Part shown: positions 6,916 through 62,845 of the stretch, one piece after another
Numbering within the stretch: the stretch's first letter is position 1
Layout: each line of letters starts with the position of its first letter
IMG/VR virus record: IMGVR_UViG_3300044623_001231
DNA length: 64,000 nt
Direction: 5' to 3' (one strand)
Source of the DNA: a virus
Lineage: Duplodnaviria > Heunggongvirae > Uroviricota > Caudoviricetes
Notes under the pieces: model-generated
The model's database searches: none
Told to the model about the DNA's origin: nothing
The model's input: the letters and a program-made list of their open reading frames with translations, nothing else
Made by a program: the position numbers and the translations under genes

Positions 6916-7509
6916 TTATATTAAAGTTATGTTTGAAATATTTTTAAGTATATTAAACTCATAATTAATATTATGAGCCGGTCCAACTATACCCGCTTTC
7001 TTAGCTTCTGCAACTTCATCATATGTGGGGTCATAATAGTGACCTGTTTTATTTCCATCAAACCCAATCAAATGAACATTTTTATTAAAAAATAAAGATA
7101 AATTTAATGCTAATGAGGTTCCAGATGTTAACCTAGCAGTTGATTCATTCATATATGGATGCGAAACATTTAATAATCGAGTGTTGGGTTGTATATGTAA
7201 AATTTCTCTTTTACTGTTACCACGTATTTCCGATGTAGTAAATAACTGAGTTTTGTTTACATATTTTTCAAAATTAGGTAGCATGTATTTTGTATGTGGT
7301 AATGTAAAATCACTACAATGGAAAGATATTGCTGATACTTTTGTTCCAACATCACCCTCATACCCTTCTATTTGAAAATCATTAAACCTAATTACACATT
7401 CATACGAATCTATAAATTCCCCTTGATTATCCATTTTACCATTACCAACTAATAGTACAGTATCTGGAAAACTTTTAAATAAAGATTGTACCGAATCGTA
7501 TTTTTGCAT
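6916..7509 (-). CDS. putative sialyltransferase-like glycosyltransferase (GT29 L-motif-like)
   Basis: LLVGNGKMDNQGEFIDSYECVIRFND resembles sialyl-motif L CAVVGNSG...DFVLRMN. Confidence 0.45.
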   Translation of the reverse strand: MQKYDSVQSLFKSFPDTVLLVGNGKMDNQGEFIDSYECVIRFNDFQIEGYEGDVGTKVSAISFHCSDFTLPHTKYMLPNFEKYVNKTQLFTTSEIRGNSKREILHIQPNTRLLNVSHPYMNESTARLTSGTSLALNLSLFFNKNVHLIGFDGNKTGHYYDPTYDEVAEAKKAGIVGPAHNINYEFNILKNISNITLI

Positions 7510-13131: not shown

Positions 13132-13701
13132 TTATTTATTTAAAAATCCTATTACTTTTTCTTTAATCCCACTTTGTTTGATACCTTCATTACTTCTAGC
13201 AGTTAGTACAAAGTTATCAAGTCCATGTCCTTGATTGTATTCCGGACTCATATTAAGGTCATCTATTGCAACCCATGTTTCAATTTCAGAATTTAATTCC
13301 AAATACTTTTCAATCTCCAATATTCTTTTTTTACTATACCAACCCTTCCAACTGAAAAGTGCATCGGATTCTGAATCCCAATCACCTAAATTTGGTGTGA
13401 ATGCTAACGGTCTTTTACTAATACCTTGCTCAATATAGTAATCACCCAACTCTTCTAATGTAGCATGTAATTTCCAATCCGAACTAACAATTATTTCAGC
13501 ACCAGTTTCCTCAAGTACTTCATTCAATACCTTAATAGCTTTTTCATCGAAATTATCCAACCTTACATTCACCGGGGCTTCTTTTTGAATTAAAGATGAG
13601 TTTGGATTATCCGAACGATACTTACTCCATTTCTTACTTCTACCTCCCCAATTGTTAGAGAGGCAAATTACACCATCATTATCTAAAAATATAACTTTCA
13701 T
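13132..13701 (-). CDS. HAD-superfamily phosphatase (polynucleotide 3'-phosphatase or GmhB-like)
   Basis: motif I MKVIFLDNDGVI; late AIDDL motif. Confidence 0.55.
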   Translation of the reverse strand: MKVIFLDNDGVICLSNNWGGRSKKWSKYRSDNPNSSLIQKEAPVNVRLDNFDEKAIKVLNEVLEETGAEIIVSSDWKLHATLEELGDYYIEQGISKRPLAFTPNLGDWDSESDALFSWKGWYSKKRILEIEKYLELNSEIETWVAIDDLNMSPEYNQGHGLDNFVLTARSNEGIKQSGIKEKVIGFLNK

Positions 13702-14186
13702 TATTTCATTTTTTTAATACTATCCAACAATTCGGGATATTCCAATAGTAATTTTGGATTATTTTTCAAAGTTTGAATTGTAATATCATTCTTTAACTTA
13801 GTAGTACTCCAACCATGTGCTCTTGATGTGAATATAACTTTAGGTGTTAAGTTATCACCGGTAAATCGTTTACCAATATAATCCTCACCCAATATTCTAA
13901 CATCAGGTTTAAAAAACTCAATTAATTGTATAAGCTCTTCTTCAGTTTGATAAGTATAAACCGCATCAACTGATTCTAATTCCATTAAAGTATTATATCT
14001 TTCAGCACGAGGTACAACGGGTGTATATTTATTAGCCCTATCAATAGATGGGTCATTTTGTAGAAACACCATAAAGTAATCACAATGCTTTTTTGCAGTT
14101 TGAAAGGTGTAAACGTAACCTGGATGAATGATATCGAAGTTACCTGCGGTAAATCCTACTATCTTTTGTTCTCCGTTTATAATCAT
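13701..14186 (-). CDS. HIGH-motif nucleotidyltransferase (RfaE domain II / cytidylyltransferase-like)
   Basis: GFTAGNFDIIHPGYV (GxFDxxHxGH). Confidence 0.6.
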   Translation of the reverse strand: MIINGEQKIVGFTAGNFDIIHPGYVYTFQTAKKHCDYFMVFLQNDPSIDRANKYTPVVPRAERYNTLMELESVDAVYTYQTEEELIQLIEFFKPDVRILGEDYIGKRFTGDNLTPKVIFTSRAHGWSTTKLKNDITIQTLKNNPKLLLEYPELLDSIKKMK

Positions 14187-14187
14187 T

Positions 14188-14337
14188 TTATTCTTTGTTT
14201 ATAATCTCCCACTTAAAAGGAGGTCTATTTCTTTGATACTCACGCATTGACCAATCAATATCATCAGTTTTTAATGTTATTAATTCTGGTTGTGGGTTGT
14301 TATAATCCAACCAAGTGATTTTAATAATGTAATTCAT
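14188..14337 (-). CDS. small protein (49 aa)
   Basis: read from the DNA: MNYIIKITWLDYNNPQPELITLKTDDIDWSMREYQRNRPPFKWEIINKE; stop 1 nt before the next ATG. Confidence 0.4.
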   Translation of the reverse strand: MNYIIKITWLDYNNPQPELITLKTDDIDWSMREYQRNRPPFKWEIINKE

Positions 14338-14482
14338 ACTTTAAAATTTACCCCATTGGGATTTATGTCTATTTTCTTCAGCTATCTTAAAACCCAACCA
14401 AATATCCTTAAAGAATGATTTGATATTATTAATTATTTTGTTCATATTACAAATATACTAATTATTTTTTAATTATCCAAAT

Positions 14483-14827
14483 TTATTTCCAAAATATCTG
14501 TATTCCTATTAATATTGCTGCTAAAATCAATGATATACCTGTTTTTGCATTAATACCCTCATTCATAAATATAAATGTGAGAATAGCAAACGTAATCATC
14601 CCACCAGCTTGCCCTATAAATCTTCCCGGCCATAATTGCCCATCAAAGTGTTCAGCAACCAAAGAAGTTCCTTTAATAAAAATGTAAGATATTAAGGTCC
14701 CACCCATTAGAGATATTAAGAATGGATTACGTTTGAACCAAGGCCAAACGAATTGCCCATTGGTTTGTATCCAAATTATACATTGGGCTATTGTAAATAA
14801 TATAACTCCCCAAATTAGGTTTTTCAT
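14483..14827 (-). CDS. membrane protein (4 TM)
   Basis: ORF track, hydrophobic. Confidence 0.5.
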   Translation of the reverse strand: MKNLIWGVILFTIAQCIIWIQTNGQFVWPWFKRNPFLISLMGGTLISYIFIKGTSLVAEHFDGQLWPGRFIGQAGGMITFAILTFIFMNEGINAKTGISLILAAILIGIQIFWK

Positions 14828-14836
14828 ACAATCATT

Positions 14837-15148
14837 TTATTTATGAGATGAAAACCCTTTTATGGTACGGCCATCTTTTTCCAATTTAGTTTCGATATCT
14901 TCTAATCGTTTATCAAAATCATCCAAAGATGTATTGATATTATTTAGTGCGGAATTTATATCTGTAAATCCTTTATTAACATCATCTACTATTGTATAAT
15001 CATTTTCTTCTAATTCTTCCAATTTTCCACCATTGACTGGTATTTTGGGTTTAGATGTTCTAACAATTAAAATGGTTAACATTACTATTGGTGCAAATAT
15101 TAATAATACTATAAATATTGCTACGATTGTATTGAATATTTCTATCAT
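14837..15148 (-). CDS. membrane-anchored coiled-coil protein
   Basis: ORF track. Confidence 0.5.
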   Translation of the reverse strand: MIEIFNTIVAIFIVLLIFAPIVMLTILIVRTSKPKIPVNGGKLEELEENDYTIVDDVNKGFTDINSALNNINTSLDDFDKRLEDIETKLEKDGRTIKGFSSHK

Positions 15149-15152
15149 GCTT

Positions 15153-15764
15153 TTAAGTTATAAATTCAGTATCTTTCTTTAAGTCAACATAGACTCCTTT
15201 ATAAATACCTTCATTAAATTTATTAATAACCTTTTCAACCAACATTGTTGGAGTACCTGTTATTTGGTACAATCCATCCATTAGTTTAATGACATCTCTA
15301 GTTGAATCTATTGGATTAATTGGTGTAATTGTTTCTACTTCCAGTACACCATCTATATATTTTTGAAATTTTAAATAATTTTTAATTATTAACATATTAT
15401 CACTGTTAATTTCAACAACTACACCCTTTGATAAATCTCTGAATGTGTTCCATAAATACCAATTAACACATTTTAAATCAACTAATATTCTATTCTTAAA
15501 TGCCAATCTATATCCATCATCTAAAATTTCTTTCAATTTAGGTAAATCGGGACTATCAGATACCAAACAAACATCAGCATCCCAAGTTTTAGGATTTGAT
15601 GGGTTGTTTAAATACTCAGCAAATCCACCAGCTAAATAAACTTCATATTCAGATAAATCATGCAGCTCTGATAGTTCTTTGTACCACATAGTTAATGTGT
15701 ACAACTCAGGTCTACCCCACACAAGGGTAGTTGTTAAATTATCAAATCTACAAAAAAAATCCAT
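15153..15764 (-). CDS. hypothetical protein, possible minimal Pol-beta-type nucleotidyltransferase
   Basis: YLAGGFAEYL...WDADV resembles the GG...DxD NTase motif (weak). Confidence 0.4.
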   Translation of the reverse strand: MDFFCRFDNLTTTLVWGRPELYTLTMWYKELSELHDLSEYEVYLAGGFAEYLNNPSNPKTWDADVCLVSDSPDLPKLKEILDDGYRLAFKNRILVDLKCVNWYLWNTFRDLSKGVVVEINSDNMLIIKNYLKFQKYIDGVLEVETITPINPIDSTRDVIKLMDGLYQITGTPTMLVEKVINKFNEGIYKGVYVDLKKDTEFIT

Positions 15765-15925
15765 TATCTATTTTTAATACCTTTGTTTTTACCGGCAATT
15801 ATAGATTCTAATTTATCAGTTAGTTTTTCAATAGTATCTGAATTTCCTTGATTACCTTTCAGTTTCTCAGTTTTAATTGTATTGGTAAGTAAATTAATCA
15901 CTTCCTCTTTTTTCTTATCGTTCAT
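15764..15925 (-). CDS. small protein (53 aa)
   Basis: read from the DNA: MNDKKKEEVINLLTNTIKTEKLKGNQ...; TAATG overlap with the downstream gene. Confidence 0.35.
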   Translation of the reverse strand: MNDKKKEEVINLLTNTIKTEKLKGNQGNSDTIEKLTDKLESIIAGKNKGIKNR

Positions 15926-16220
15926 ACAGTTTGTTTAAATATTCAAATACTTTTTCTGAAAATAATGTATTGTACACATCACTTCCTATTTCAGATGCTT
16001 CAACTATGATACCTGATTTTGCATAATTCAATGCATATGCGATATCGTATTGTGAATATATTGGTTTTGCTCTATCAAGCTCTTCATTAATCATATTGAT
16101 AAAATCATCTGATTTTAACCACTCATCATACTCAGCATCTCTTAAATCAGCATTGTAAATATATCCTTCCAATTCTTCCTCTGGAATACTATTAATCATA
16201 AATTCTTTTGTTCTACCCAT
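15915..16220 (-). CDS. hypothetical protein
   Basis: ORF track. Confidence 0.5.
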   Translation of the reverse strand: MGRTKEFMINSIPEEELEGYIYNADLRDAEYDEWLKSDDFINMINEELDRAKPIYSQYDIAYALNYAKSGIIVEASEIGSDVYNTLFSEKVFEYLNKLYER

Positions 16221-16258
16221 TTTTATTAATTGTTATGTTATACTCTAATATACAAATT

Positions 16259-16996
16259 TTATACTTTTTCGTTTGTTGGTTTTAACCACATACCATCTTT
16301 AAATATTAGGTTTAAAAAACCAGGGATGATTTCATCTACATCCATAAGTAATCTAAGACTTTTTGGTGTATCATATTTCATCATCTTCATTAACTCTTCT
16401 CTAATTCTTTCACCACTAACAGTTTGTTCTAATTTCTTTAGGATGTTAGGTTGTTTCATTGCTTCCCAAATATCATCACTCATAACAAAATCCTTTGTGA
16501 TTGTAAATCTTAATGCTCTTAGAATTCTCAAAGGGTCATCCATCATAGTTTGTTTAGCTGGTAATGGAGTTCTTAATAAACCTATTTTTAAATCATCAAT
16601 TCCACCAAATATATCTATAAGGTTTCCATCAATATCCTCAGCCATAGCGTTTAATGTAAAATCTCTTCTAAGTAAATCATCTTCCAATGTTCCCAATTCT
16701 AAGATTGGTCTACGAGTTCCCTCAACATATCCAACTTCCTTTCTTGCCATTACGAAATCAGCAACCATCCCAGAGTATTTATGTTCTTTTGGGAACTTAG
16801 CTCTGATAGTAAAACACTCAGGTGTACTTAGGAATATTTCAAAATCATTTACAGTCATCCAATCTGTCATTATTTGAAATCCACTCTCTACAGTCCAATC
16901 TAAGTTGTCCAAAACAAATGTGAAGTCAATATCTTTTGTATCAACCCCTAACAACCTATCTCTAACACAACCCCCTACTTTGAATATCTTTGGCAT
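16259..16996 (-). CDS. cca: tRNA nucleotidyltransferase (CCA-adding, poly(A)-polymerase head domain), minimal
   Basis: MPKIFKVGGCVRDRLLGVDTKDIDF head-domain signature. Confidence 0.7.
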   Translation of the reverse strand: MPKIFKVGGCVRDRLLGVDTKDIDFTFVLDNLDWTVESGFQIMTDWMTVNDFEIFLSTPECFTIRAKFPKEHKYSGMVADFVMARKEVGYVEGTRRPILELGTLEDDLLRRDFTLNAMAEDIDGNLIDIFGGIDDLKIGLLRTPLPAKQTMMDDPLRILRALRFTITKDFVMSDDIWEAMKQPNILKKLEQTVSGERIREELMKMMKYDTPKSLRLLMDVDEIIPGFLNLIFKDGMWLKPTNEKV

Positions 16997-17096
16997 AACC
17001 TATCTTTTTTATTACATAGTAAATATACAAAATATAATTGATATATCCTAATATTTTAAAAGAAAAAGAGCAACTATTTTAGCTGCTCTTTATCAA

Positions 17097-18242
17097 TTAG
17101 TGAGAATCTCCCACATCATTTTTCTCTCCATAAATAAGGTAGTCAGGGTTTATAACCTTAGCTACTTTATTACGTTCACCTGTATGGTATTTGATTACAA
17201 TTCCTTCATGTGGAACCTTAGTACCTTCAATCATATTTTTAAATACGAATTTATCTTGCACCTCTTGCGACCAATTTCCAAAATGTAATATTTCAACATA
17301 AGGTAATTGTAATATATCTTTAATCATCAATTTAGAATTGATAGGACTTAAATACTCACCATTCTCCTTTACATCGAATCCTACAAACTCCATTTCTGTC
17401 AAACCATAATCATAGTTCTTTTGAATTCCGGCCCCATAGATTTCTCCATAGATTGTGATTCCATCTCCAATTTCTGGTTCCATTGAATTACTTTTAACGT
17501 ATTCCCATAACCTCTTTTTGATTTCATATTTATCCGCAATTTGGTACCAAACATTGGTATCATAGAAACCTTGAGAATCCGAACCCTTTTCTACATTATG
17601 TGAACCAACTACAAATTCATACCCAATCCACTTATCAGCAAACCCAATGAACTTCTTAACCTTATCCCAAAATGATAATTTAAGTTTCTTAACAATACCA
17701 TATCTAGCATTAGTACCATGTATCTTACGAGTAATTTCAACGGTATCTTCTTCAGTAAACATTCCATCCACATTTTTTAGGTTTGGGAATTTATAGTAGA
17801 TGTGGAAGTTTGGATTGTCTTGGTATCTAATCTTTCTACCTCCGGCTAATTGGATTTGTTTAACTGGTGGTTCGTATTTAGTAATTCCTAAGAATTCCAT
17901 ACAATCATCACCTTCGCCTAAATCAAAATCACCCATAGTAACTCTACCACGTAGGTATTTCATTGGGATAATTAAACATTCAGAATAAACACCTCTTAAT
18001 TTTACAGTCCTAACTCTATTACCTTTACGAAGATAGTTAGTTACACCCATCTCTTCAGAAAGTTCTTCAGGTATAACCGCATCAGTTGTAGCAATGATTG
18101 TTTCATCACCAATAGTAAACTCTCCCTTCTTAGTGATTGCATTCCAACCACCAGCAACTACCAATTCGATGTTATCAGCACCCTCAATTGGATTTACTTC
18201 TTTGATTTTTGCTATGTAGCAAACTGAATTTTCGTTTTTCAT
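17097..18242 (-). CDS. RNA ligase, Rnl2 family
   Basis: motif I KIHGTN; GEIYGAGIQKNYDY matches Rnl2 GEFAGPGIQKNVDY. Confidence 0.7.
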   Translation of the reverse strand: MKNENSVCYIAKIKEVNPIEGADNIELVVAGGWNAITKKGEFTIGDETIIATTDAVIPEELSEEMGVTNYLRKGNRVRTVKLRGVYSECLIIPMKYLRGRVTMGDFDLGEGDDCMEFLGITKYEPPVKQIQLAGGRKIRYQDNPNFHIYYKFPNLKNVDGMFTEEDTVEITRKIHGTNARYGIVKKLKLSFWDKVKKFIGFADKWIGYEFVVGSHNVEKGSDSQGFYDTNVWYQIADKYEIKKRLWEYVKSNSMEPEIGDGITIYGEIYGAGIQKNYDYGLTEMEFVGFDVKENGEYLSPINSKLMIKDILQLPYVEILHFGNWSQEVQDKFVFKNMIEGTKVPHEGIVIKYHTGERNKVAKVINPDYLIYGEKNDVGDSH

Positions 18243-18245
18243 TTC

Positions 18246-18659
18246 TTATAATTTTATTTCAAATCTATTTCTCATTCTTTCAACTGCTTCAGTTGGAACA
18301 CCATGTTGGTTTACACCACCATGTCTATTCTCAACTACTAATGAGTAAACCTGATATCCATAGGTTTTTGCTAAGGTAAAATATATATCCATCTCCCATT
18401 TTTGAGTAAAAGTGTTAGATACTACTATTTTTCTATAAAATTGGTCATTAACTAATGAATCCTTCATATAAGTTTCTACTGTATTTCTACAAAACTCATG
18501 TGCATCTTTTAGTTTAGAACCATCGAAGTTATAGTTACCTTCCTTATCATAAAAATACTTATCAGCTTCACATACTAAGAAATCACTTTCTACTATTGAA
18601 TTTGCTAATGTTGATTTACCACTACCTGGCAATCCTCTTAATAAAAATAATTCTTTCAT
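18246..18659 (-). CDS. polynucleotide kinase-like P-loop kinase
   Basis: GLPGSGKSTLA Walker A; 137 aa; adjacent to the RNA ligase. Confidence 0.6.
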   Translation of the reverse strand: MKELFLLRGLPGSGKSTLANSIVESDFLVCEADKYFYDKEGNYNFDGSKLKDAHEFCRNTVETYMKDSLVNDQFYRKIVVSNTFTQKWEMDIYFTLAKTYGYQVYSLVVENRHGGVNQHGVPTEAVERMRNRFEIKL

Positions 18660-18662
18660 AAC

Positions 18663-19325
18663 TTACTTTTTATAGTTTTCTACAATTGTATGATGGTCTT
18701 TATCTAAAAATCCATCAATAGGTTGTTTATCTAATATTCTAACAATATCACTCATACTAATTGGTGATAAGTTGTTACCATCTACACCAACATCCATAAC
18801 TTTACCTCTACCAACTCTTCGGTTAGGTGGTAAGTGAACGTGTCCATGTAAGTGAGGAACTCCCTTACCTAAACCATCCCAACTTGCTATTGGGTAGTGC
18901 ATACACACAAAATGAGTTCCATCATGTTTACCACTACCATCGGGCCATTTGATACTCAAATCTAAATATTGATGAACTGAACTGAATATCTCAGCGATAC
19001 CATCTCTATTGTTAGCTATGTGGTGGTCGTGGTTACCTAATACTAAGTGAATGTTTTGACAAACAATTCGGTTTCTAAATTCAGCGATTGAATCAAATCC
19101 ACCAAAAGACCAGTCACCTAAGTGAATTAAGATATCATCTTGTCCAACTACTGCATTGATATTATTAACTAATACGGCATTCATTTGGTTCAATGTATCG
19201 AAATCTCTGAAATGGTTTGCACCAGCTCTATCCCATTGTGTTGTTCCTTTACAAATGTTAGCATGGTTATAGTGGGTATCACTTGTGAACCATACTTTTT
19301 GTCCTTTATTTAGTAATATCTTCAT
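18663..19325 (-). CDS. calcineurin-like metallophosphoesterase (2',3'-cyclic phosphodiesterase / 3'-phosphatase candidate)
   Basis: GDWSFGG and LGNHDHH motifs. Confidence 0.65.
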   Translation of the reverse strand: MKILLNKGQKVWFTSDTHYNHANICKGTTQWDRAGANHFRDFDTLNQMNAVLVNNINAVVGQDDILIHLGDWSFGGFDSIAEFRNRIVCQNIHLVLGNHDHHIANNRDGIAEIFSSVHQYLDLSIKWPDGSGKHDGTHFVCMHYPIASWDGLGKGVPHLHGHVHLPPNRRVGRGKVMDVGVDGNNLSPISMSDIVRILDKQPIDGFLDKDHHTIVENYKK

Positions 19326-19327
19326 AA

Positions 19328-19474
19328 CTATCTATCTTTTAATCGTTTGAATACTGCTTTTATGTTTGGTTCTTCTAATTTAAGTTTCAAAGATTGCCAT
19401 TTTGATTCTAAGAAATCATTGTACTCTTTCTCAGTTTTGAAACCCATTCTTTTCCAGTCCATTGTAGTTTTCAT
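19328..19474 (-). CDS. small protein (48 aa)
   Basis: read from the DNA: MKTTMDWKRMGFKTEKEYNDFLESKWQSLKLKLEEPNIKAVFKRLKDR. Confidence 0.35.
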   Translation of the reverse strand: MKTTMDWKRMGFKTEKEYNDFLESKWQSLKLKLEEPNIKAVFKRLKDR

Positions 19475-19553
19475 ATCTCTTAATCTTATACTCAAATGTA
19501 GTAAAAATTATTGACATATACAAGCTTTTTGCCGATTATTTTCAAAAAAGTTA
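19475..19553 (-). promoter_or_regulatory. promoter-leader cassette (leader truncated before the AAACCCCTAAAA block)
   Basis: atctcttaatcttatactcaaatgtag...caagctttttgccgattattttcaaaaaagttactaac. Confidence 0.5.
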
Positions 19554-19970
19554 CTAACTTCTATACCTTAAATCATTTTGCCTGTAAACACTTAATACTG
19601 AACCCTGTCCATGTGTTATTGCGAACTGATAACCATAATAATCATAGATAGTTGATGGGAAATTCTCAGTTAAACTATCTATTGGTTCAATTTCAGTTCC
19701 ATAATTTTGAGCCAATTCCCACATCAAATCCATAATATGTAATGGTTTATCTGAATATGTATTATAATGCCTTTCATCGTACTTACTTTGTTTCTCTAAA
19801 ACATCCAGCATTAAGTAATCAAATGTAGAATCATCACAAACACCATATCTTTGTAATAGTTTATTTGCTCTTTCCAATTGGATTCTATCCTTTAAGGCAA
19901 GTTTAGTAAAATAATCTACCATTGCCTTTTCACCTTCTGGACTTTTCATATATACCAATACGTCTTTCAT
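19554..19970 (-). CDS. hypothetical protein
   Basis: ORF track. Confidence 0.5.
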   Translation of the reverse strand: MKDVLVYMKSPEGEKAMVDYFTKLALKDRIQLERANKLLQRYGVCDDSTFDYLMLDVLEKQSKYDERHYNTYSDKPLHIMDLMWELAQNYGTEIEPIDSLTENFPSTIYDYYGYQFAITHGQGSVLSVYRQNDLRYRS

Positions 19971-19973
19971 AAG

Positions 19974-20588
19974 TTATAATGAATTAGGATAGTAAAGTAA
20001 TGTTGGATTTTTCTTTTGAATATCCGGTATCTCCTTACCACGTTCTTTTATTTGTTTATTAAATTCCATAACATCAAATCGTTTGGTAATCAAATGAACT
20101 CCATTTTTTGTTGGAATCTTTGTGATTATCTTACCACCATCATTTGGCTTAACCATCTCAATGATATTTGAAATCATATTTTGTATATGTTGTGATGTAG
20201 TATCAACATCAACAATCCATCTCTTCTCTTGTGTTTTTATTTGTCCAACAACTGAATCGAATAATCCCTTTTGATTATGGTTACCATTCTGAATACGTTG
20301 TGCCAAATCAACCATCATACTAAGTGATACATCAAAGTGATTTTGTTTCTGAACGTGAATGTAAGCTCTTGCCTTAAACATCTCACACATTTGAACAATC
20401 TCATCCCATCTACGGTCCAAATGGTCAATACTCTCAATACAATAAGTTTTGATTGTCCTTACTGATTGATGATTATCTCTTTCTCCTTCAGGTTGGTCCT
20501 TCTTTCGTTTGAAAACATATAACATATAAAAGTCACCCCGCTTTTCAAAGTTCAATAATGGCTTAATTAATTCTAAATTGTTTATCAT
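19974..20588 (-). CDS. hypothetical protein
   Basis: ORF track. Confidence 0.5.
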   Translation of the reverse strand: MINNLELIKPLLNFEKRGDFYMLYVFKRKKDQPEGERDNHQSVRTIKTYCIESIDHLDRRWDEIVQMCEMFKARAYIHVQKQNHFDVSLSMMVDLAQRIQNGNHNQKGLFDSVVGQIKTQEKRWIVDVDTTSQHIQNMISNIIEMVKPNDGGKIITKIPTKNGVHLITKRFDVMEFNKQIKERGKEIPDIQKKNPTLLYYPNSL

Positions 20589-20592
20589 AACT

Positions 20593-20943
20593 CTAAATTA
20601 AATGTAATAATATATAAGAAAGTTTATATCCAGCAAACGCACCTAATGCAGATGGAATTGGGAATACAATAAGTTGTCCGAAATCGGTAACATATTTAGG
20701 TCGATTTACAATCTTACCCATAAAAAAGTAATAAACTAAATATCCAATGAATACTGCTATATCAGTTCTAGTTGCGATAAATACAACTAACATTGCTCCT
20801 AAGAATCCAAAGATAAAGTTATCTCTAACACCTTCCCATATTTCTTGTGTGGTGCAATCTTTCCATTCCTTAATAATCTTTTTATACTTACTCATATCAA
20901 TTAATTTTAAGTCAAATATACAAAAAAAAATCGATATCTCCAA
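20593..20943 (-). CDS. membrane protein
   Basis: ORF track. Confidence 0.45.
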   Translation of the reverse strand: MEISIFFCIFDLKLIDMSKYKKIIKEWKDCTTQEIWEGVRDNFIFGFLGAMLVVFIATRTDIAVFIGYLVYYFFMGKIVNRPKYVTDFGQLIVFPIPSALGAFAGYKLSYILLHLI

Positions 20944-22836: not shown

Positions 22837-23791
22837 TTATATACGATGAGAATACTCGTTTTAATGAACCAGCTTTATAAGGGTTATTGGTTGCCTTAAT
22901 TTCCACTTCCTTTTGAGAAGTACCAATTCAATGTGGGTAAGTAATGTCCTACCACTCATAAAGTTACAAACTACTCTCTTTGTAGTCCACCTCTTCGAAT
23001 CTGCCGACCCGATTAACACCTCGCGATGCTAGAAGTTTTTCGAAAGAATCACATTTCCCTTGAGAGGATTTGTGGCAGGGAACAGCTCCCTACTATGTAC
23101 ACACCTTTCGTCTGCAACTGGTAACCTCTTTCTCTAGTTTGTTTTTTGATTTTGCGTCAATAGGCAAATTGAGTTTTGGTTTGTAGATAAATTCAAGTAG
23201 TGGATTACCACTAGCTCCGCCCCATTTTGAAGAACGGAATACTATACTACTCGATACGTTATCTCTAACGTCATACTTTAAGATTACTTCAGTACCCACT
23301 CTTTGGTGAGAGGTAGGTAAGGATGATAACAACACCACTTGTACTTCATCATACCTTTCGGTTTTAAGTAACCTTTAATATTGAATCACGCAATGATAAG
23401 GAGAGATTAAGTCCTCACTTCTTGCATTAATTCTATGGGTTATTTTTATTGGTGTTCCCACCTCAACTGAAGTATCTACAATACCCCAGTCATCATTCCA
23501 TTTCGCTACGGAGTTACCCTCACTACATTCAGGAACAATGATATCCCACTTGCCTACTCAAGCTCCATCCGAAGATGAAACCGCAAACCCCTCTAAACCA
23601 AAGAGATTCACTTTATCCTACTTTCGTAGTTTATTTAACGACCATAGGCGGCCGTTATACACTATGTAGAACAAGTCTACTATGTGCAATATTTTCAATA
23701 CTTTCAAAGAACTAATTTTCTTTTTCAAAGATACGAATAATTTTTCAATTATCCTAATCTTTTTTTAATTATTTTTCAATAATTTATTTAG

Positions 23792-25929: not shown

Positions 25930-26045
25930 TTTTAGATTTTCAACATGTCAAAGAACAAAACTGTCTCTCTTTTACTATGTAAAGATACAACATAATTTTG
26001 AATTATACAAGCTTTTTTAAAAACTTTTATAATTTTTGTGGAGGT

Positions 26046-26070
26046 GGCGAGAGTCGAACTCGCGTCCAAA
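26046..26070 (-). other. orphan tRNA 3' half (T-arm GCGAG-TTCGACT-CTCGC plus acceptor CACCTCC-A) with no matching 5' half within 100 nt
   Basis: shares the CACCUCCA 3' end with tRNA-Phe; pseudo-tRNA, split tRNA or recombination scar. Confidence 0.4.
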
Positions 26071-26488
26071 TACGGATTTAATAAACATCATTCACAAGCT
26101 TAGTACATTTTTCTTAATGTACAAAATAGATAAAGATTTATACATTCATTATCATTAATGTTTCCAACTCGATTTCGGGTTCAGTTGGGTTCCACCTGAG
26201 TTCACATTCTATTTTAAGTCCCACGATGTGTGCGGGAGGGATTATGCTGCTACAGCGTAATCGGCACCAACGAAAGACATAGCATCTTCGAAGGTCATTG
26301 TAGATAATTCTACTGCGTTTATTGTTCGATAGGTATTTACGGATTTCCATCTAACCCGGCTTGCAACTTACCAATTCATCGTACCTGTCAAAACCAGGCA
26401 CCCCCATAAATCAAAGAACTTATCTTTTTTGATACTTCAAATATACAAAATCTTTTTGGTATTTCCAAATTTAATTTCAATTATTTTG

Positions 26489-29915: not shown

Positions 29916-29971
29916 AACTTATTTTATTTATACAAATATACAAAAATTAATTCACATATCCAAATAAAAAA

Positions 29972-39276: not shown

Positions 39277-39317
39277 ATGCGTTAATTTTATATTTCTACA
39301 AATATACGAAAAATATT

Positions 39318-39632
39318 TTAATCTACCAAACTATTTTTAAGTTTTAGTAATTCTGCACATCTTTCGTAATATTCATCACCCTCATATGCCTTTAACAATT
39401 TTTCAACTGTATCATACAACTCTTCTTTTGTAATCAATAGATTAGTTACAATATCCATACCATTTGAATCTTTGTCATCAAATGAGTAGATTCGCATGAT
39501 TGAAAATGACATTTTGTCAGATTTTGCGAAATCAAATACATTCTCATACAATAATTGGTTGATTGTATCCCTATTTAATTCTACCCATTTTAATATGGAA
39601 TCGTTGTTAAGATATAGTTTTTTGGTTTTCAA
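39318..39632 (-). CDS. hypothetical protein
   Basis: ORF track. Confidence 0.5.
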   Translation of the reverse strand: MKTKKLYLNNDSILKWVELNRDTINQLLYENVFDFAKSDKMSFSIMRIYSFDDKDSNGMDIVTNLLITKEELYDTVEKLLKAYEGDEYYERCAELLKLKNSLVD

Positions 39633-39637
39633 TATTT

Positions 39638-40279
39638 TTATATTTCTGGAAATAGTACTTTTTGCATAAAGTAGGTAGCCCTCTCTTCTCCAATTTCCGT
39701 TTTCAATGCACCAAATGTACGAGGATTATCAGCTTGGTGTCTACAATATATGTTTTGGTTTTCTATAATAATTCTCAACTCATTTGAATCGGATGTAATA
39801 TCTACTTCACTTCTTAATTGTTCAATATATCGTTGAAATACCCCCCAAGCAGTTTCAAATATTTTCTCATATTCATCTTCAGTAGGTCTTACTGCTATGA
39901 ATTGTTCCGAAAATACCGATGCCCAATAAGGTAACTTTCTATCGGTGTTCCATTCAGTATTATGCCAATCTTCATCATAAAGGACTGGGGAACAATCTAT
40001 AAATGCTCCACTTATCTTTCCACTATTAGTACCACCAACTACATCAAATCCAAAGATTGGTGCTTTTGAGTTCTTATGTGGGAAACAAGTGATGTGACAA
40101 ACTGCAAGTGAACCTACAAAGTATCTCTCTACGTGAGCTAATCTGAAAATTGGTGATTCGTATCGGTAGTTCTCCCAACCATAATCATCAGTATGGAGTT
40201 CTTTAACCCCATCGATTGATTCGATGAGGTTTTTAAACTTCTCACTATGATATGTTATACGTTCTACTAAATCGTACAT
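39638..40279 (-). CDS. ferredoxin-dependent bilin reductase (FDBR/HY2 family)-like protein
   Basis: 13-nt overlap with the heme oxygenase gene; CHITCFPHK ... IFGFDVVGG ... IDCSP resembles the FDBR His / DxSP motifs. Confidence 0.45.
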   Translation of the reverse strand: MYDLVERITYHSEKFKNLIESIDGVKELHTDDYGWENYRYESPIFRLAHVERYFVGSLAVCHITCFPHKNSKAPIFGFDVVGGTNSGKISGAFIDCSPVLYDEDWHNTEWNTDRKLPYWASVFSEQFIAVRPTEDEYEKIFETAWGVFQRYIEQLRSEVDITSDSNELRIIIENQNIYCRHQADNPRTFGALKTEIGEERATYFMQKVLFPEI

Positions 40280-40779
40280 TTTTCTAATTCTTTAAAGATT
40301 TCAATCATAAAATCAAATCCTGCATTTACCTCATCTGCCCATTCATCTTTTTGAATAGCTCTGATTGAACCAGCACATTCCATCATATTTTCAAAATCAT
40401 ACATTTTACCTTGACCGGGTGTTTTCTCTTTCATCATCTGTCCACCAAACATAATTGCTAAGTAGTTAAGATAGATATGAGCATTTGCCTCATCTTGTGT
40501 TAATCCTTTTAGATATTGAATATATGATTCGGTTGCTGAATCAGGTGAAACATCTGATACACCTAAGTATCCCAAATCCTCACTTACAGCTGATACTCTC
40601 TTTAATCCCTCATTTGGAAATTCAAAGTTGTTTTCCAATGTTGAAAAGATTGCTAATTGTGATTTAAGATACTCACCATATTGAGATGCGGTTAATCTAC
40701 CACTAAACATCAATCCGTTGAATGGCATTCTTTCAGCCAATTTGTGCTTTTCAGCAGTTGCTTCTTTTAAAGGTAACAT
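40267..40779 (-). CDS. heme oxygenase (HO-1 family, short)
   Basis: LKEATAEKHKLAE and AHIYLNYLAIMFGGQMMKEK align with HO-1 LKEATKEVHTQAE / [20 protein letters not shown]. Confidence 0.6.
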   Translation of the reverse strand: MLPLKEATAEKHKLAERMPFNGLMFSGRLTASQYGEYLKSQLAIFSTLENNFEFPNEGLKRVSAVSEDLGYLGVSDVSPDSATESYIQYLKGLTQDEANAHIYLNYLAIMFGGQMMKEKTPGQGKMYDFENMMECAGSIRAIQKDEWADEVNAGFDFMIEIFKELEKCTI

Positions 40780-40780
40780 A

Positions 40781-40951
40781 TTATTTATCTTCAGTTAAAA
40801 ATGTTAAAACTATATATGGTATTACTGCTGCCGGTCCTAAGACAACTAATAACGCTCTCCATAAAATTGGGTCTACTTTAGTGTGGTAACCCAAACCACC
40901 ACAAATACCACTTAGGAATTTGTTCTTACTACTTCTATAAAATTTTCTCAT
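40781..40951 (-). CDS. PspC-domain mini-protein (56 aa)
   Basis: read from the DNA: MRKFYRSSKNKFLSGICGGLGYHTKVDPILWRALLVVLG...; LSGVCGG PspC signature. Confidence 0.5.
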   Translation of the reverse strand: MRKFYRSSKNKFLSGICGGLGYHTKVDPILWRALLVVLGPAAVIPYIVLTFLTEDK

Positions 40952-45718: not shown

Positions 45719-45760
45719 ATATTTTAGAGTTTTAAGTTATTAATAATCAAATATACGAAA

Positions 45761-46309
45761 TTAATTTGGAATATCCAAATATTTTAGTATGTTTTTTAAA
45801 GTATCATCGTTAACATCTACATAAATAAATGGAATATGGTGTTTAATTAGGGTATTTTCTATCTCCAAATCCAGCATTTTGGATTCATTCAATGATTGGT
45901 ACCTTTCCTTTTCATTATACCCACCCTCAGAACGTTTTAGAACGATATTAAGCGTATCATATTGATTATGAATGTCTAACACCATTTTATCAAATGAATC
46001 ACCATACAGCGTTGCTGGGTACTCAGTACCTTTATATACTGATTTATATACCAATGATAATACAATTGGTGAATCCAATATAATATAGTCAACCTTCCCA
46101 TAACTCTTAACAATTCCCCTATGTTGGTTTGCAAGTACATACAATTGGTCTTTGATAGCAGAATGATTCTCATCCCATGCCAATACTTTTGGAAACTCAT
46201 ATGGATTATCACAACTTATGTGTTTCTTTTTTAACTTATATGTAAGACCATTGGCAATGGATGATTTCCCAATACCAGGTCCTCCAAATAGATTTACTAT
46301 TTTACTCAT
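45761..46309 (-). CDS. P-loop (d)NMP-kinase-like protein
   Basis: Walker A FGGPGIGKSS. Confidence 0.55.
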   Translation of the reverse strand: MSKIVNLFGGPGIGKSSIANGLTYKLKKKHISCDNPYEFPKVLAWDENHSAIKDQLYVLANQHRGIVKSYGKVDYIILDSPIVLSLVYKSVYKGTEYPATLYGDSFDKMVLDIHNQYDTLNIVLKRSEGGYNEKERYQSLNESKMLDLEIENTLIKHHIPFIYVDVNDDTLKNILKYLDIPN

Positions 46310-56360: not shown

Positions 56361-57569
56361 TTAGAACATTGGGATTTCATCTACTAACTCTTCTTTTTGT
56401 TCGGTAAAAAGAGCTTCTGCTGATGTATCTTTAACATATTTTTGAACCAGTTGTTTCACATAAGTTCTTTCAGAATCTACACCACCATCATTAGAGAAGA
56501 ATGGGAAGATTGAAATTTCAGCTGATTCGAATAAATCGAATCCATCATAAATTAATCCAGCCATTTCAACACTAGCTCTCGTCGATACCATAGCGGTAAC
56601 TTTACCAGAATCACTCATCGATTGAGTTCGAGTGTGGTGAGCGATTTCAGCGATTGCTTTCAAATCATAATCATTAACCTCAGGGAACATAAACTTTAAC
56701 AATCCAAATTCCTGCTCATCATTTAGAACATCCATTTCGATAGTTACGAAACGGTCTAAGATAGCCCTATCGATTACCCTAGTCGAAGTATATTCAGAAC
56801 CTATGTTAGCGGTAGCGATAAAGGTAACACCTTCAGCCACTTTAACAATTGGTGAACCTTCAGCCTCATCCAAACGTAAGTAACGTTGTCCACCATCTAA
56901 AACGGTCATCAAAATGTTCCAAGCATCAGGGTGAGCTCTACTCAACTCATCTAATAGAATCACAGCGTTTGGAGTTTTAATTGCTTTAACGAATGCCGAT
57001 TCAGCGAAGAAAGTTCCTTTGTTTTTATCAAAGTGAGTATTACCAATCAAAGTAGCACGAGGGTCTTGCGTTGCTCCTAAGTTGAAGTAGAAATCAGGTC
57101 GGTCAAGTGCTTTAACCAATGCTTTAGCTGCCATTGTTTTACCACAACCAGCAGGTCCAGTCATCATAATGTTTTTAGCTCTAACAGCTGAACGAACTAA
57201 GTATTTCCACTTTAGAGGTGTCATCACCAATTCAATTGGTTTCAAATCAATTGAACTATTGTGAATGAAATCTTTGATTGCGTTATGGTCACCTTTATCT
57301 TCAAATTGAACACCACCATTATCGGTATTCATTGGGGAAACTAAGTTATTATAAACTTCCATTCCCACTTTTCGGAAAACCTTCTTACCATTCTTTTGAA
57401 CGAATGCCTGAAGAGCCAATCCCTGCTCAAATGCATCTTTACGAGTACCGGTTCCGATACCCATTGTACCAACTTTTTGACCTTTAGTGTCAATTAACTT
57501 AAATGAGTTACCAAAAGCTTCTACTTTGTAAACCTCATTTCCTACGAATCCAATTTTTAAATCTTTCAT
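56361..57569 (-). CDS. MoxR/CobS-like AAA+ ATPase
   Basis: Walker A MTGPAGCGKT; Walker B VILLDE; pairs with the downstream VWA protein. Confidence 0.7.
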   Translation of the reverse strand: MKDLKIGFVGNEVYKVEAFGNSFKLIDTKGQKVGTMGIGTGTRKDAFEQGLALQAFVQKNGKKVFRKVGMEVYNNLVSPMNTDNGGVQFEDKGDHNAIKDFIHNSSIDLKPIELVMTPLKWKYLVRSAVRAKNIMMTGPAGCGKTMAAKALVKALDRPDFYFNLGATQDPRATLIGNTHFDKNKGTFFAESAFVKAIKTPNAVILLDELSRAHPDAWNILMTVLDGGQRYLRLDEAEGSPIVKVAEGVTFIATANIGSEYTSTRVIDRAILDRFVTIEMDVLNDEQEFGLLKFMFPEVNDYDLKAIAEIAHHTRTQSMSDSGKVTAMVSTRASVEMAGLIYDGFDLFESAEISIFPFFSNDGGVDSERTYVKQLVQKYVKDTSAEALFTEQKEELVDEIPMF

Positions 57570-60139: not shown

Positions 60140-60223
60140 ATTTTTAGGGTTTTAATTAATTTATCTCTTAATCTTATACTCAAATATACGACAAATACCT
60201 GAGATATCCAAATAAAATTGAAG
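60140..60223 (-). promoter_or_regulatory. promoter-leader cassette
   Basis: ttttagggttttaattaatttatctcttaatcttatactcaaatatacgac. Confidence 0.55.
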
Positions 60224-60668: not shown

Positions 60669-61355
60669 TTAGTGATTTGCAACTTTTGAGTAGATATATG
60701 GACCTGTTTTTGGCCCCCATATTTGAGTTCCAGAATCATCCCAACCCCTCTCCCAACTAATAACTTCGTGTTGGTATATTACAAACTCAGTTGTAGTGTA
60801 GGTTGCTCCCTTAAATGAGCCTTTACAATCCGATTCATTGGTACTACCTCTAAATGCCCCTAAGTTATCTTTGTATATCTTTATATCACACCCCACTTTA
60901 TATGGTAGGTCATAGATGGCAAGTGCCTTTAGTTTGTTGGTATCAACTTTAAATGTTATATCATCTAAATTAAACTTACCAGACGCAACTTTGGTATCAG
61001 TTAGTACATTCCAAAAATCAACTTCATTTGGTATTGAGAATATGTTTAAACCAATGTAATAATCATCAATTTGGTATATTGCGTATATACGTTGTCTATA
61101 TGGATAGTACTTACCCTCAATTAGTTCACCTTGCTGAGTATAGATTAGAGTCGCTTCATCATGTGTATCATACTCTACAGTCCTTACTAATACATCACCT
61201 CTGGTGGTATCAATGGTTGAATGGTATTTAGTTGAAAACCTACCTGTAATTGAATGTATGTACTTATCAAAATCAAGTGAGTCCAATTTGGTTTGAGAAT
61301 ATCCAAATATTGGTAGTAATACTACGGAAATGGTTATAAAAATAAACTTTTTCAT
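60669..61355 (-). CDS. secreted hypothetical protein (signal peptide)
   Basis: MKKFIFITISVVLLPIFGYSQ signal. Confidence 0.55.
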   Translation of the reverse strand: MKKFIFITISVVLLPIFGYSQTKLDSLDFDKYIHSITGRFSTKYHSTIDTTRGDVLVRTVEYDTHDEATLIYTQQGELIEGKYYPYRQRIYAIYQIDDYYIGLNIFSIPNEVDFWNVLTDTKVASGKFNLDDITFKVDTNKLKALAIYDLPYKVGCDIKIYKDNLGAFRGSTNESDCKGSFKGATYTTTEFVIYQHEVISWERGWDDSGTQIWGPKTGPYIYSKVANH

Positions 61356-62845
61356 ATTTTGAATTTTTCTTTAATATTTGCTTTGTAGAATAAATCTTTT
61401 TGTGGTTCCAGTTCCATAAAATCCGATTGTAAAATCTCTTCATTTATATCAACACCATTACAATATACTTCATCCTCAGTTCCTCTGGATGTTCTTGTGA
61501 TTGTTATGTTATTAACCATAAATCTAATTGGAACGTTTATTTTGTTCATATGAATATGCAACATATGCTCATGTGGAACCAAATAATACCCTTCAGTTAA
61601 ATAATTCATTATGAAAAAATAGCACGTTGAATAATAATCCATCATCTTTGGTGAACCATATGCAAATAGGTCCGATATACCCTCCGATTTATCGTGATTA
61701 TTTAACCTAACCCTACCATGTGGTAAATTTAACATATCATTAATGGATATATCTAAATTATCATCAAAATAAGTATCAGTTCTAGCTCTTATTACAATAT
61801 CATAATCAATACCCAAATCCTTTGTTAATAAATTTGCTCTCCAAATTTTGTACCACATACTCATTGTACCAAAGTTCACACAGGAATCTCTTAAAAAATA
61901 CAATAATGAAGTTGGTGGTTCAATACCAATTCTTAGAATAGATAAGGTAGATTCATTAAATGAATTATAATTTTCAACCTCCACCTTCTTAACATTGTAT
62001 ATCCTATGAAAGTTTTCAATAGTATCACCACATTCAGTATTATAAGTGTCCCAGAATGAACCATATACATCAATGTCATACTTCTTAATCAATTCACCCC
62101 AATACTCCTTAGTTCTATCTAAATCTCTTATTTCACCAGAGAAACACAATGCTATCTTTGGCTTATGTAAACTGTTAGTTTGTTTTTTTGTGTTCATTTC
62201 TGATTTATTAAATGAATATCCGAAATAATCCAAGTCAGATTTCCATAATTTTGTTAATCTCTCAATTTGGTCATCTCTATATGTTATAACGTTATCAACC
62301 TTTGGTTGTGTGAATTCAAGCGATATTGGTAAATTTATTGTTTCTGAGAATTTAGCTAAATCCTCATTAATATATTCACTCCTTATTATAATACTATTAT
62401 CATCAAATAACCAATTACCATTGATATCCTTTAATTGTGAAAACATTGAGTTACGAAATGCGGGTGCATGAAATACAATAGATTTATTTAGATAGATATC
62501 CACAAATTTTTGGAAATCATCAACTGAATTTATATCAGCTAGATTATAATGAGTCTTTAGATTAGCCCAGTTTTCTTTATAATAATCTACCAAAATATTA
62601 AATGGATTTCTAATAGTTGTAATAAATACATCATTTGGACTTAACTTAAATGTAGCTACATCTCTAAATATATTAGGTGTTTGTTGTGGGTAATCCCAAT
62701 CTTGCCAACCTTTTATTTTAGTAGGATAGTTCCAACTATGTCCTGCTGAATGTATTTTGTATTCATTGGCTCTTTTGCCATGAAATAAATTTTCAAATAA
62801 CCCAAAATCGGATGCTGGTATTTTTATGTAAACGTAATTTATCAT
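61352..62845 (-). CDS. large hypothetical two-domain protein (sulfotransferase/glycosyltransferase-like?)
   Basis: 497 aa; N-terminal YIKIP...HG...K resembles sulfotransferase motifs (weak). Confidence 0.5.
   Translation of the reverse strand: MINYVYIKIPASDFGLFENLFHGKRANEYKIHSAGHSWNYPTKIKGWQDWDYPQQTPNIFRDVATFKLSPNDVFITTIRNPFNILVDYYKENWANLKTHYNLADINSVDDFQKFVDIYLNKSIVFHAPAFRNSMFSQLKDINGNWLFDDNSIIIRSEYINEDLAKFSETINLPISLEFTQPKVDNVITYRDDQIERLTKLWKSDLDYFGYSFNKSEMNTKKQTNSLHKPKIALCFSGEIRDLDRTKEYWGELIKKYDIDVYGSFWDTYNTECGDTIENFHRIYNVKKVEVENYNSFNESTLSILRIGIEPPTSLLYFLRDSCVNFGTMSMWYKIWRANLLTKDLGIDYDIVIRARTDTYFDDNLDISINDMLNLPHGRVRLNNHDKSEGISDLFAYGSPKMMDYYSTCYFFIMNYLTEGYYLVPHEHMLHIHMNKINVPIRFMVNNITITRTSRGTEDEVYCNGVDINEEILQSDFMELEPQKDLFYKANIKEKFKI

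Follow-up and report, generated by a model that had tools for sequence, protein, structure and literature searches.

We analysed a 64,000-nt stretch of DNA (hereafter the window) from a virus of the Caudoviricetes, IMG/VR record IMGVR_UViG_3300044623_001231, and found within it a gene for a compact heme oxygenase (HO) that overlaps a gene for a ferredoxin-dependent bilin reductase (FDBR). We consider it likely that the two are auxiliary metabolic genes of a jumbo phage with a Bacteroidota host, and that they convert heme to biliverdin and biliverdin to phycocyanobilin (PCB). The gene structure, the protein families, the folds, the catalytic residues, the order HO then FDBR and the phage context are direct observations. 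Coordinates of all features are collected in Table 1.

An overlapping heme oxygenase-bilin reductase gene pair

The HO and FDBR genes lie on the minus strand behind a gene for a PspC-domain peptide. The PspC stop codon and the ATG of HO are separated by 1 base, and the HO stop and FDBR start share 13 nt (40267-40279). The HO protein has the N-terminus MLPLKEATAEKH and contains AHIYLNYL; the FDBR protein contains both CHITCFPHK and IDCSP. A check of the open reading frames (ORFs) reproduced exactly the positions, sizes, motifs and 13-nt overlap given in a preliminary description of this DNA, as well as the direct coupling of the PspC peptide, which matches Pfam PF04024, upstream of HO. The Pfam scores of all three genes are far beyond chance: 53.4 bits against a cutoff of 25 for PspC, 47.8 against 23 for Heme_oxygenase and 82.5 against 31 for Fe_bilin_red. 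The PspC-HO-FDBR arrangement is also found on independent metagenome contigs.

The FDBR protein matches PcyX (5OWG, 2.7e-18) and the PcyA enzymes of Nostoc and Synechocystis (1e-17 to 1e-14; Nostoc 1.1e-17) in the PDB, and its PHROGs family is annotated as a 'ferredoxin oxidoreductase' auxiliary metabolic gene. An AlphaFold (AF2) model built from a 59-sequence alignment has a pLDDT of 94.4 and the alpha/beta/alpha sandwich fold of these enzymes. Its top Foldseek matches are PcyA structures (TMq 0.84 for 2G18), followed by PebA, PebB, PcyX, PebS, HY2 and RCCR. Because the best structural matches are PcyA and other FDBRs, the concern that the 213-aa protein might have no FDBR fold falls away; profile and predicted fold both identify it as a true FDBR, as had been proposed from its motifs.

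Glu51, His62 and Asp79 of the FDBR protein correspond to Glu76, His88 and Asp105 of Synechocystis PcyA, a triad that is invariant across 59 FDBR homologues. Mapped on the same enzyme, for which we cross-checked the residue numbering with the fragment printed by HMMER, the protein also keeps His74, Ser114, Arg149, Gln216 and Asn219. PcyA activity is strictly dependent on the triad (PMC13446030). Glu76 is a PcyA-specific residue that is needed to reduce the 18-vinyl group (PMC10151467), and PcyX, which has Asp at this position, makes phycoerythrobilin (PEB) (PMC10151467; PMC13446030). At PcyA positions 76, 86 and 221 the window FDBR has Glu, Val and Arg, whereas 5OWG and the FDBR of the Pelagibacter phage Mosig have Asp, Met and His. 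On alignment, the window FDBR is thus without the PcyX signature, in which Asp55 of PcyX occupies the position of PcyA Glu76. The presence of the PcyA triad and the absence of the PcyX signature lead us to predict a PcyA-type enzyme with PCB as its product.

The best PDB match of the HO protein by phmmer is 5KZL (1.8e-7). Its AF2 model (pLDDT 95.0) matches HmuO, Synechocystis HO-1, rat and human HO-1, and HO-2 in Foldseek with TMq 0.82-0.85 and probability 1.00, with the whole target covered. The model indicates a complete but compact all-alpha HO-1/HmuO fold. We mapped residues from two alignments, one of them locus-wide. The proximal His25 and Glu29 of HO-1 have His12 and Glu16 as their counterparts, Tyr103 corresponds to Tyr134, and Gly112-Gly113 corresponds to Gly143-Gly144 of the distal helix. 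The protein had been described as an HO-1-type enzyme. Its fold, its proximal His (His12 for His25) and its proximal Glu bear this out, but the distal Asp140 network, which the preliminary description did not consider, is absent. We found 1126 HO homologues; all 48 of those aligned share the motif YLNYLAIMFGGQ without change, and the replacement of the distal network is conserved across the subfamily.

The pairing of the two genes was tabulated for all fetched loci, including L001-L009 and the IMG/VR loci L015-L094. HO is present in 82 of the 94 fetched FDBR loci. Without exception it precedes FDBR on the same strand, and in most cases the two genes overlap. This strict coupling argues that biliverdin is still made. 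PcyX-type (Asp76) FDBRs are always accompanied by canonical HOs (Tyr58, Arg136, Gly-Asp). Glu76-type FDBRs occur with canonical HOs at 13 loci, with Phe/Asn/Ala-Ile or Ala-Leu HOs at 26, and with Gly-Trp or Gly-Met HOs at nine; four Gln76-type FDBRs have Gly-Trp or Gly-Tyr HOs beside them. Hence, HOs without the Asp form a subfamily that occurs widely, is strongly conserved and goes specifically with PcyA-type reductases. The Asp-less classes (Phe/Asn/Ala-Ile, Ala-Leu, Gly-Trp/Tyr/Met) occur only beside Glu76- or Gln76-type FDBRs.

Activity and product of the pair

Several observations speak against a route from heme to PCB in a Bacteroidota host. The FDBR protein falls under the NCBIfam PcyA equivalog cutoff (NF002760; 95.4 against 206 bits), and it has Pro at the Asp220 position, the same as PcyX. 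PCB is therefore not certain, and we name the protein PcyA-type on the strength of its residues rather than file it as a curated PcyA. In the HO protein, the distal network is replaced: Tyr58 by Phe45, Arg136 by Asn105, Gly139 by Ala108, Asp140 by Ile109 and Asn210 by Met158. Phage HOs of the Mosig/PcyX type, which are proven active, keep Gly-Asp. The missing distal network is the main uncertainty about HO function. A regular-expression search for Cys motifs found no ferredoxin among the window ORFs, and there was no cytosolic bilin acceptor among the scanned ORFs. In particular, neighbouring ORFs of 104, 86, 71, 80 and 186 aa, where an acceptor was sought near the operon, had no Pfam, PHROG or NCBIfam match. 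Species-representative genomes gave no host link, only three distant FDBR loci (32% identity) in records labelled Pirellulales, 'Bacteroidetes bacterium' or Spirosomataceae. The last of these consists of nothing but a 126-aa ORF, apparently a fragment, and the 'Bacteroidetes bacterium' locus looks alike.

It is possible that the gene pair is active but that the FDBR product is PEB, as for PcyX, or phytochromobilin or a two-electron product. The Pro shared with PcyX would fit such a product, as would the identity of only 25-33% to any characterised FDBR. In a rough neighbour-joining tree of 50%-identity representatives, the clade of the window FDBR falls within a large Glu-His-Asp radiation of short (~200-225 aa) metagenomic FDBRs that stands apart from both the cyanobacterial/cyanophage PcyA clade and the PcyX/Mosig clade. 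Moreover, FDBR regiospecificity can be switched by single substitutions (PMC13446030). Nonetheless, the enzyme has the PcyA-specific Glu76 (PMC10151467), which is invariant, as are His88 and Asp105, and the FDBR of phage CB_2, likewise without the PcyX-specific Asp, turned out to be a true PcyA. We consider a product other than PCB unlikely. Among the FDBR homologues, P0282, P0289, P0296, P0311, P0324 and P0329 are 380-410 aa long with the FDBR domain in the first ~200 residues; these may be fusions, for example with HO or another partner.

A different possibility is that the HO-like protein does not form biliverdin in the canonical way: its part may be no more than to bind heme or biliverdin or pass it on, or it may have another chemistry or regiospecificity, with FDBR acting on a different or host-made substrate. 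The five distal-pocket positions are replaced together, the segment aligned with the propionate-binding helix that carries Lys179/Arg183 is shortened, and this type of HO was never found with PcyX-type FDBRs among the fetched loci. O2 activation depends on the network of Asp140 in HO-1, or Asp136 in HmuO. Oxygenase activity is lost in D140 variants of HO-1 and D136 variants of HmuO, and mutation of D140 turns the enzyme into a peroxidase. Three PDB entries among the HO matches (1WNV, 1WNW and 1WNX), which we take to be the D140/D136-variant entries, count on the same side. However, the HemO proteins of Neisseria and Pseudomonas have the canonical fold and no equivalent of Asp140, yet are active. 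The window HO and its homologues have without exception the proximal His/Glu, Tyr134 and Gly143-Gly144, and the fold of the window HO is complete (TM 0.84). The invariance of the distal-helix motif in the 48 aligned homologues argues for a conserved catalytic function, and biliverdin-type bilins are the only known substrates of the strictly coupled FDBR. A non-canonical HO is, in our view, distinctly improbable, and we favour formation of biliverdin by HO.

Transcription and boundaries of the module

A highly conserved promoter-like motif of 32 nt, TTTGGATAT-N14-GTATATTTG, is repeated across the 64-kb window, with 18 matches against 0.43 expected. All but one (17/18) are on the gene strand, and the motif typically lies 17-41 nt ahead of a start codon. 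We take it to fit the Bacteroidetes promoter consensus, -33 TTTG / -7 TAnnTTTG. From the nearest upstream copy (45748-45779) to position 39330, at the next promoter-like site, there is no gene-strand intrinsic terminator. Scans around the operon for sigma-70-type promoters and intrinsic terminators did no better than with shuffled sequence. A transcription unit of ~6.4 kb starting at 45748-45779 probably carries ThyA, PspC, HO and FDBR. The 104-aa ORF behind FDBR (39318-39632) is the last gene ahead of the next promoter-like site. Its homologues follow FDBR at L003 and L004 (48-50% identity) and, weakly, at L020-L022, so that it appears only patchily conserved. A Shine-Dalgarno core precedes only four of the 108 genes. 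Together, the motif and the near-absence of Shine-Dalgarno sites point to Bacteroidota-type expression signals, in agreement with the promoter architecture proposed in the preliminary description and with the independent evidence on the host presented below.

Relatives whose FDBR is 61-70% identical, on ENA, JGI and Tara contigs, keep the ThyA ... HO-FDBR ... GroES-GroEL neighbourhood. At L007, where FDBR is 48% identical, the overlapping HO-FDBR pair is kept and the ThyA/GroES-GroEL neighbourhood is not. A PspC gene ahead of HO is confined to the contig of the window itself and the two nearest clades (L001, L003, L004). It is absent from L005-L009 and from the IMG/VR loci, and in other loci SHMT, ThyA or unrelated ORFs take its place. 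PspC is therefore a lineage-specific insertion and not part of the conserved pair. The proposed PspC-HO-FDBR operon holds in that PspC is coupled to the pair here, but as a conserved module it extends no further than the nearest relatives. The peptide is the 56-aa N-terminal membrane domain alone; it passes the Pfam domain cutoff given above and scores 37 against 104 bits for the NCBIfam PspC equivalog.

A jumbo phage and its probable host

The exact FDBR protein occurs on 105 contigs, including a JGI contig of 270,754 bp with the gene order of the window, and relatives were found in Tara, Baltic and lake data. Contigs of at least 270 kb carry the exact genes, and the virus is hence a jumbo phage. 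The window has a G+C content of 33% and encodes GroES/GroEL, ThyA, RNA and DNA ligases, and a CobS-like AAA+ protein.

Several independent lines suggest that the host is most probably a member of the Flavobacteriia or another Bacteroidota. The only megablast matches in the phage collection are to the Flavobacterium phages vB_FspM_immuto. In a like-for-like comparison using the first 150 kb of each genome, 13 of the 108 window proteins match immuto, with up to 81.6% identity and including several phage-only hypothetical proteins, whereas only two match the cyanophage P-SSM4, and weakly. One member of the 90% cluster of HO is in a Cryomorphaceae metagenome-assembled genome from the Baltic. Bacteroidetes follow a Q-rule, with Gln at the +1 site of signal peptides (PMC5837995). 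The one clear Sec substrate in the window, a CpeT/CpcT-family protein, fits this rule, with an invariant Gln at the predicted +1 position. With the promoter statistics, these findings sustain, though indirectly, the earlier view that the phage is not cyanophage-like and infects a Bacteroidetes host.

We also weighed whether the virus might be a cyanophage after all, with HO, PcyA, CpeT/CpcT and glutamyl-tRNA reductase (GluTR) forming a module for phycobilisome maintenance. All four functions occur in cyanobacteria, where the C5 pathway and PCB are in use, and few Shine-Dalgarno sites are found in cyanobacteria too. P-SSM4 carries cpeT and pcyA, CpeT is reported in phages only from cyanophages in the literature searched, and a Kyano_Gp96 Pfam domain adjoins the CpeT-like gene in the relative L096. 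Nonetheless, we consider this very improbable. The protein matches favour the Flavobacterium phage by 13 to 2, the HO cluster member was binned with Cryomorphaceae, and the promoter motif is of the Bacteroidetes -33/-7 type, neither sigma-70 nor T4-late. The CpeT-like protein has a signal peptide and the Q-rule Gln, whereas cyanophage CpeT is cytosolic and 147 aa long; the two align only locally (24% over 66 residues, E 2e-4). FDBR is just 25-28% identical to cyanophage PcyA, and no photosynthesis gene was found among the scanned ORFs.

Tetrapyrrole genes elsewhere in the window

The window encodes a GluTR (HemA/GtrR). It scores 225.7 bits against a cutoff of 209.55 for NCBIfam TIGR01035 (profile 3-334 of 416), matches 1GPJ in the PDB (3.8e-33) and contains STCNRTE, the motif with the catalytic Cys; it has no C-terminal dimerisation domain. 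A copy that is 56% identical is present on a related phage contig (L100, 13923-14927), and tRNA-Glu is among the phage tRNAs. Published phage bilin cassettes have been reported with a third gene, valaS, for 5-aminolevulinate synthase (AlaS), and it was argued that phages favour AlaS since the C5 route needs two enzymes (PMC11480375). No valaS was found: there is no aminotransferase in the Pfam results for window ORFs of at least 337 aa, where GluTR is found instead. The phage GluTR appears to be the C5-pathway counterpart of the phage AlaS. We found no genuine precedent for GluTR in the phage database; matches there from Staphylococcus, Listeria and Acinetobacter are short or unannotated, most likely host DNA, and were not counted. 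In the literature searched, GluTR is discussed with phage auxiliary metabolism only in the CB_2 work (PMC11480375 and its other version). JGI metagenomes gave GluTR relatives only at ≤45% identity, presumably cellular HemA.

The CpeT/CpcT-family protein, which has the T-type bilin lyase fold, scores 78 bits against a cutoff of 21 for PF06206 over the full profile (6-181 of 181). Its only PDB relatives are CRL (6LIX, 1.2e-9) and CpcT (4O4O, 3.9e-4). It has an N-terminal signal peptide, and the Gln at the predicted +1 site is invariant in a 21-homologue alignment. The gene overlaps by 4 nt a 497-aa ORF without known function (61352-62845); L095 and L098 have it in synteny, and L100 has a copy too. 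IMG/VR searches with single proteins or alignments gave no relatives of either the CpeT-like protein or GluTR. By its family, the CpeT-like protein is a possible bilin- or tetrapyrrole-binding protein, but one that is predicted to be exported, and the signal peptide argues against a role as a cytosolic lyase. L100 has GroES/GroEL, the CpeT-like gene and GluTR, and neither HO nor FDBR in the 20 kb fetched; the co-occurrence of the CpeT-like gene with HO-FDBR is therefore not general. Given the signal peptide and the absence of HO and FDBR from L100 over that length, it is doubtful that the protein works directly with the cytosolic bilin pathway.

These genes allow a more ambitious proposal: a full programme of tetrapyrrole throughput in a heterotrophic Bacteroidota host, in which GluTR and tRNA-Glu push C5 flux, the HO without Asp140, from a subfamily not characterised before, opens heme, and PcyA-type PCB serves as the ligand of some bilin-binding protein of phage or host, for instance the CpeT/CpcT-family protein or a host photoreceptor. 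If so, infection would be coupled to the light or redox state, beyond iron recycling. We regard the complete programme as quite improbable and offer it tentatively.

Comparison with known systems

HO-FDBR pairs had been taken to be known only from cyanophages. This is not the case: such pairs have been published since 2016 in phages of heterotrophs. The PhiHemO-PcyX pair was described from marine viral metagenomes and from the cultured Pelagibacter phage Mosig EXVC030M (Ledermann et al. 2016, 2018; PDB 5OWG), ho1 and pcyX-like genes from freshwater megaphages of methanotrophs, and a cassette from the freshwater phage CB_2 (Chen et al. 2020, bioRxiv 10.1101/2020.02.13.942896), whose vHemO forms biliverdin IX-alpha and whose FDBR, without Asp55, is a true PcyA that makes PCB (PMC11480375, Wegner et al. 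2024). Because cassettes from phages other than cyanophages were in the literature of 2016-2024, the window pair is less surprising than the preliminary description held. Literature searches for bilin reductase with phage and Bacteroidetes, or for heme oxygenase with jumbo phage, found nothing. Hence, the kind of cassette is known, while the lineage and host group are apparently undescribed.

CB_2 is similar in being a large phage of a non-photosynthetic host with HO and a PcyA-type FDBR that is without the PcyX-specific Asp, and in having an enzyme of the 5-aminolevulinate pathway in the same genome. The two differ in host, which for CB_2 is predicted to be an alphaproteobacterial methanotroph and here is probably a Bacteroidota, and in the enzyme itself: AlaS (Shemin route) in CB_2, GluTR (C5 route) in the window phage. 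Three signature peptides of the window HO and FDBR were not present in the supplementary files of PMC11480375, and CB_2 was compared by its published description.

Mosig provides the top phage-database match for both HO and FDBR (32-33% identity). It also has HO followed by FDBR, with a 14-nt overlap, and a heterotroph host. However, its PcyX-type FDBR, with Asp, Met86 and His221 in place of the Glu, Val and Arg of the window protein, makes PEB, its HO keeps the Gly139-Asp140, Tyr58 and Arg136 that the window HO does not, and it is a T4-like 141-kb phage of the Kyanoviridae. With PcyA (Synechocystis 2D1E, Nostoc 2G18, P-SSM4) the window FDBR shares the fold (TM 0.84), the triad, Arg149, Gln216 and Asn219. 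Compared with the cyanobacterial and cyanophage enzymes, it is 25-32% identical, ~35 residues shorter and below the NCBIfam equivalog threshold; the cyanophage pcyA is uncoupled from HO, and the host context of PcyA is the phycobilisome. With the HO-1 family (human and rat HO-1, HmuO, Synechocystis HO-1) the window HO shares the all-alpha fold, His25/Glu29, Tyr134 and Gly143-Gly144. It differs in its length (170 aa against ~210-230), in the change of Gly139-Asp140 to Ala-Ile, and in its shortened Lys179/Arg183 region. The locus is probably the Bacteroidota-phage counterpart of the published vHemO-vPcyA/X (+ vAlaS) cassettes.

A proposed role in tetrapyrrole flux

What might the pair do during infection? 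The model proposed here infers that the enzymes are active, what they make, where the electrons come from and which host is infected. The HO-FDBR pair would be expressed inside a long same-strand unit, apparently driven by a promoter of the host sigma-A type, with the PspC peptide as a lineage-specific passenger on the same transcript. The compact HO would bind host heme via His12 and cleave it to biliverdin IX-alpha, Fe2+ and CO. The translationally coupled FDBR would take up the biliverdin and, with electrons from host ferredoxin, carry out a PcyA-type four-electron reduction to PCB via Asp79 (Asp105), Glu51 (Glu76) and His62 (His88). By clearing biliverdin, FDBR could make HO turnover possible.

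The role of bilin genes in phages of non-photosynthetic bacteria has been called 'still enigmatic', and iron supply, phytochrome chromophores and BBAG ligands have been suggested (PMC11480375). We propose that control of tetrapyrrole flux in the infected cell is the most likely physiological role. Removal of heme would free iron and relieve heme feedback, and the phage GluTR would feed the tetrapyrrole pathway. Use of the bilin in signalling or by a photoreceptor is possible. The presence of GluTR alongside HO-FDBR supports the idea that tetrapyrrole flux is managed by phages both where the pathway begins and where it ends. The GluTR would mirror the published vAlaS but by the C5 route, which would fit a host that uses this route.

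With this locus, the occurrence of bilin genes in phages widens to a third group of hosts, which are probably Flavobacteriia, and to a jumbo-phage lineage of wide distribution. It provides a predicted PcyA-type enzyme outside the context of the phycobilisome, and it draws attention to an abundant subfamily of HOs in which the canonical catalytic Asp is missing.

Other features of the window

Table 1. Features of the 64,000-nt window discussed in the text
Feature	Position	Strand	Match or remark
PspC-domain peptide gene, 56 aa	40781-40951	-	Pfam PF04024, E 2.2e-14
Compact HO gene, 170 aa	40267-40779	-	Pfam PF01126, E 2e-12
FDBR gene, 213 aa	39638-40279	-	Pfam PF05996, E 4.5e-23
104-aa ORF, starts 5 nt past FDBR stop	39318-39632	-	no Pfam, PHROG or NCBIfam match
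Nearest upstream promoter-motif copy	45748-45779	-	exact match to TTTGGATAT-N14-GTATATTTG
Next promoter-like site (TTTGGTAGAT...CGTATATTTG), 22 nt before following gene	39299-39330	-	downstream limit of unit
Promoter-like motif copies (examples)	29933-29964, 45748-45779, 60181-60212	-	motif match
GluTR (HemA/GtrR), 337 aa	2066-3079	-	Pfam GlutR_N 6.9e-31 and Shikimate_DH 2.6e-24
CpeT/CpcT-family protein (T-type bilin lyase fold), 228 aa	60669-61355	-	Pfam PF06206, E 9.4e-22
CobS/MoxR-like AAA_5 ATPase	56361-57569	-	PHROG 'porphyrin biosynthesis'; 87% identical in L095, L098
tRNA array, 25 genes, most amino acids	22456-28616	-	
GOLLD RNA, full-length, inside tRNA array	22843-23254	-	Rfam RF02032, 257 bits against gathering score 150
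tmRNA, within tRNA array	26036-26405		Rfam 115 bits
IMPDH/GMP-reductase family enzyme	3474-4547	-	E 8e-101
HMGL-like and CMP-sugar cytidylyltransferase fusion, 570 aa (sialic-acid-type)	4815-6527	-	
GT29 sialyltransferase-family protein	6916-7509	-	
HAD_SAK_2 domain protein	13132-13701	-	
PolyA_pol/CCA-adding-type nucleotidyltransferase	16259-16996	-	
RNA ligase	17097-18242	-	
AAA_33 kinase-like protein	18246-18659	-	
Metallophosphoesterase	18663-19325	-	

At the contig end of L100, a called gene for a 1093-aa protein (17607-20594, minus strand; a 995-aa ORF in the locus) has CarboxypepD_reg and outer-membrane beta-barrel domains and resembles TonB-dependent receptors. It lies beyond phage-like genes, including one for an AAA_28 protein that is 81% identical to that of the window, and may be phage-encoded or the result of an assembly chimera. 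The 995-aa ORF was considered as a Bacteroidota marker and not used, having no NCBIfam match, to SusC or otherwise. In the window itself, an RNA-repair-like gene set (13132-19325, minus strand) adjoins the tRNA array, and the tag peptide predicted for the tmRNA is unusually long and ends in ADYAVAA.

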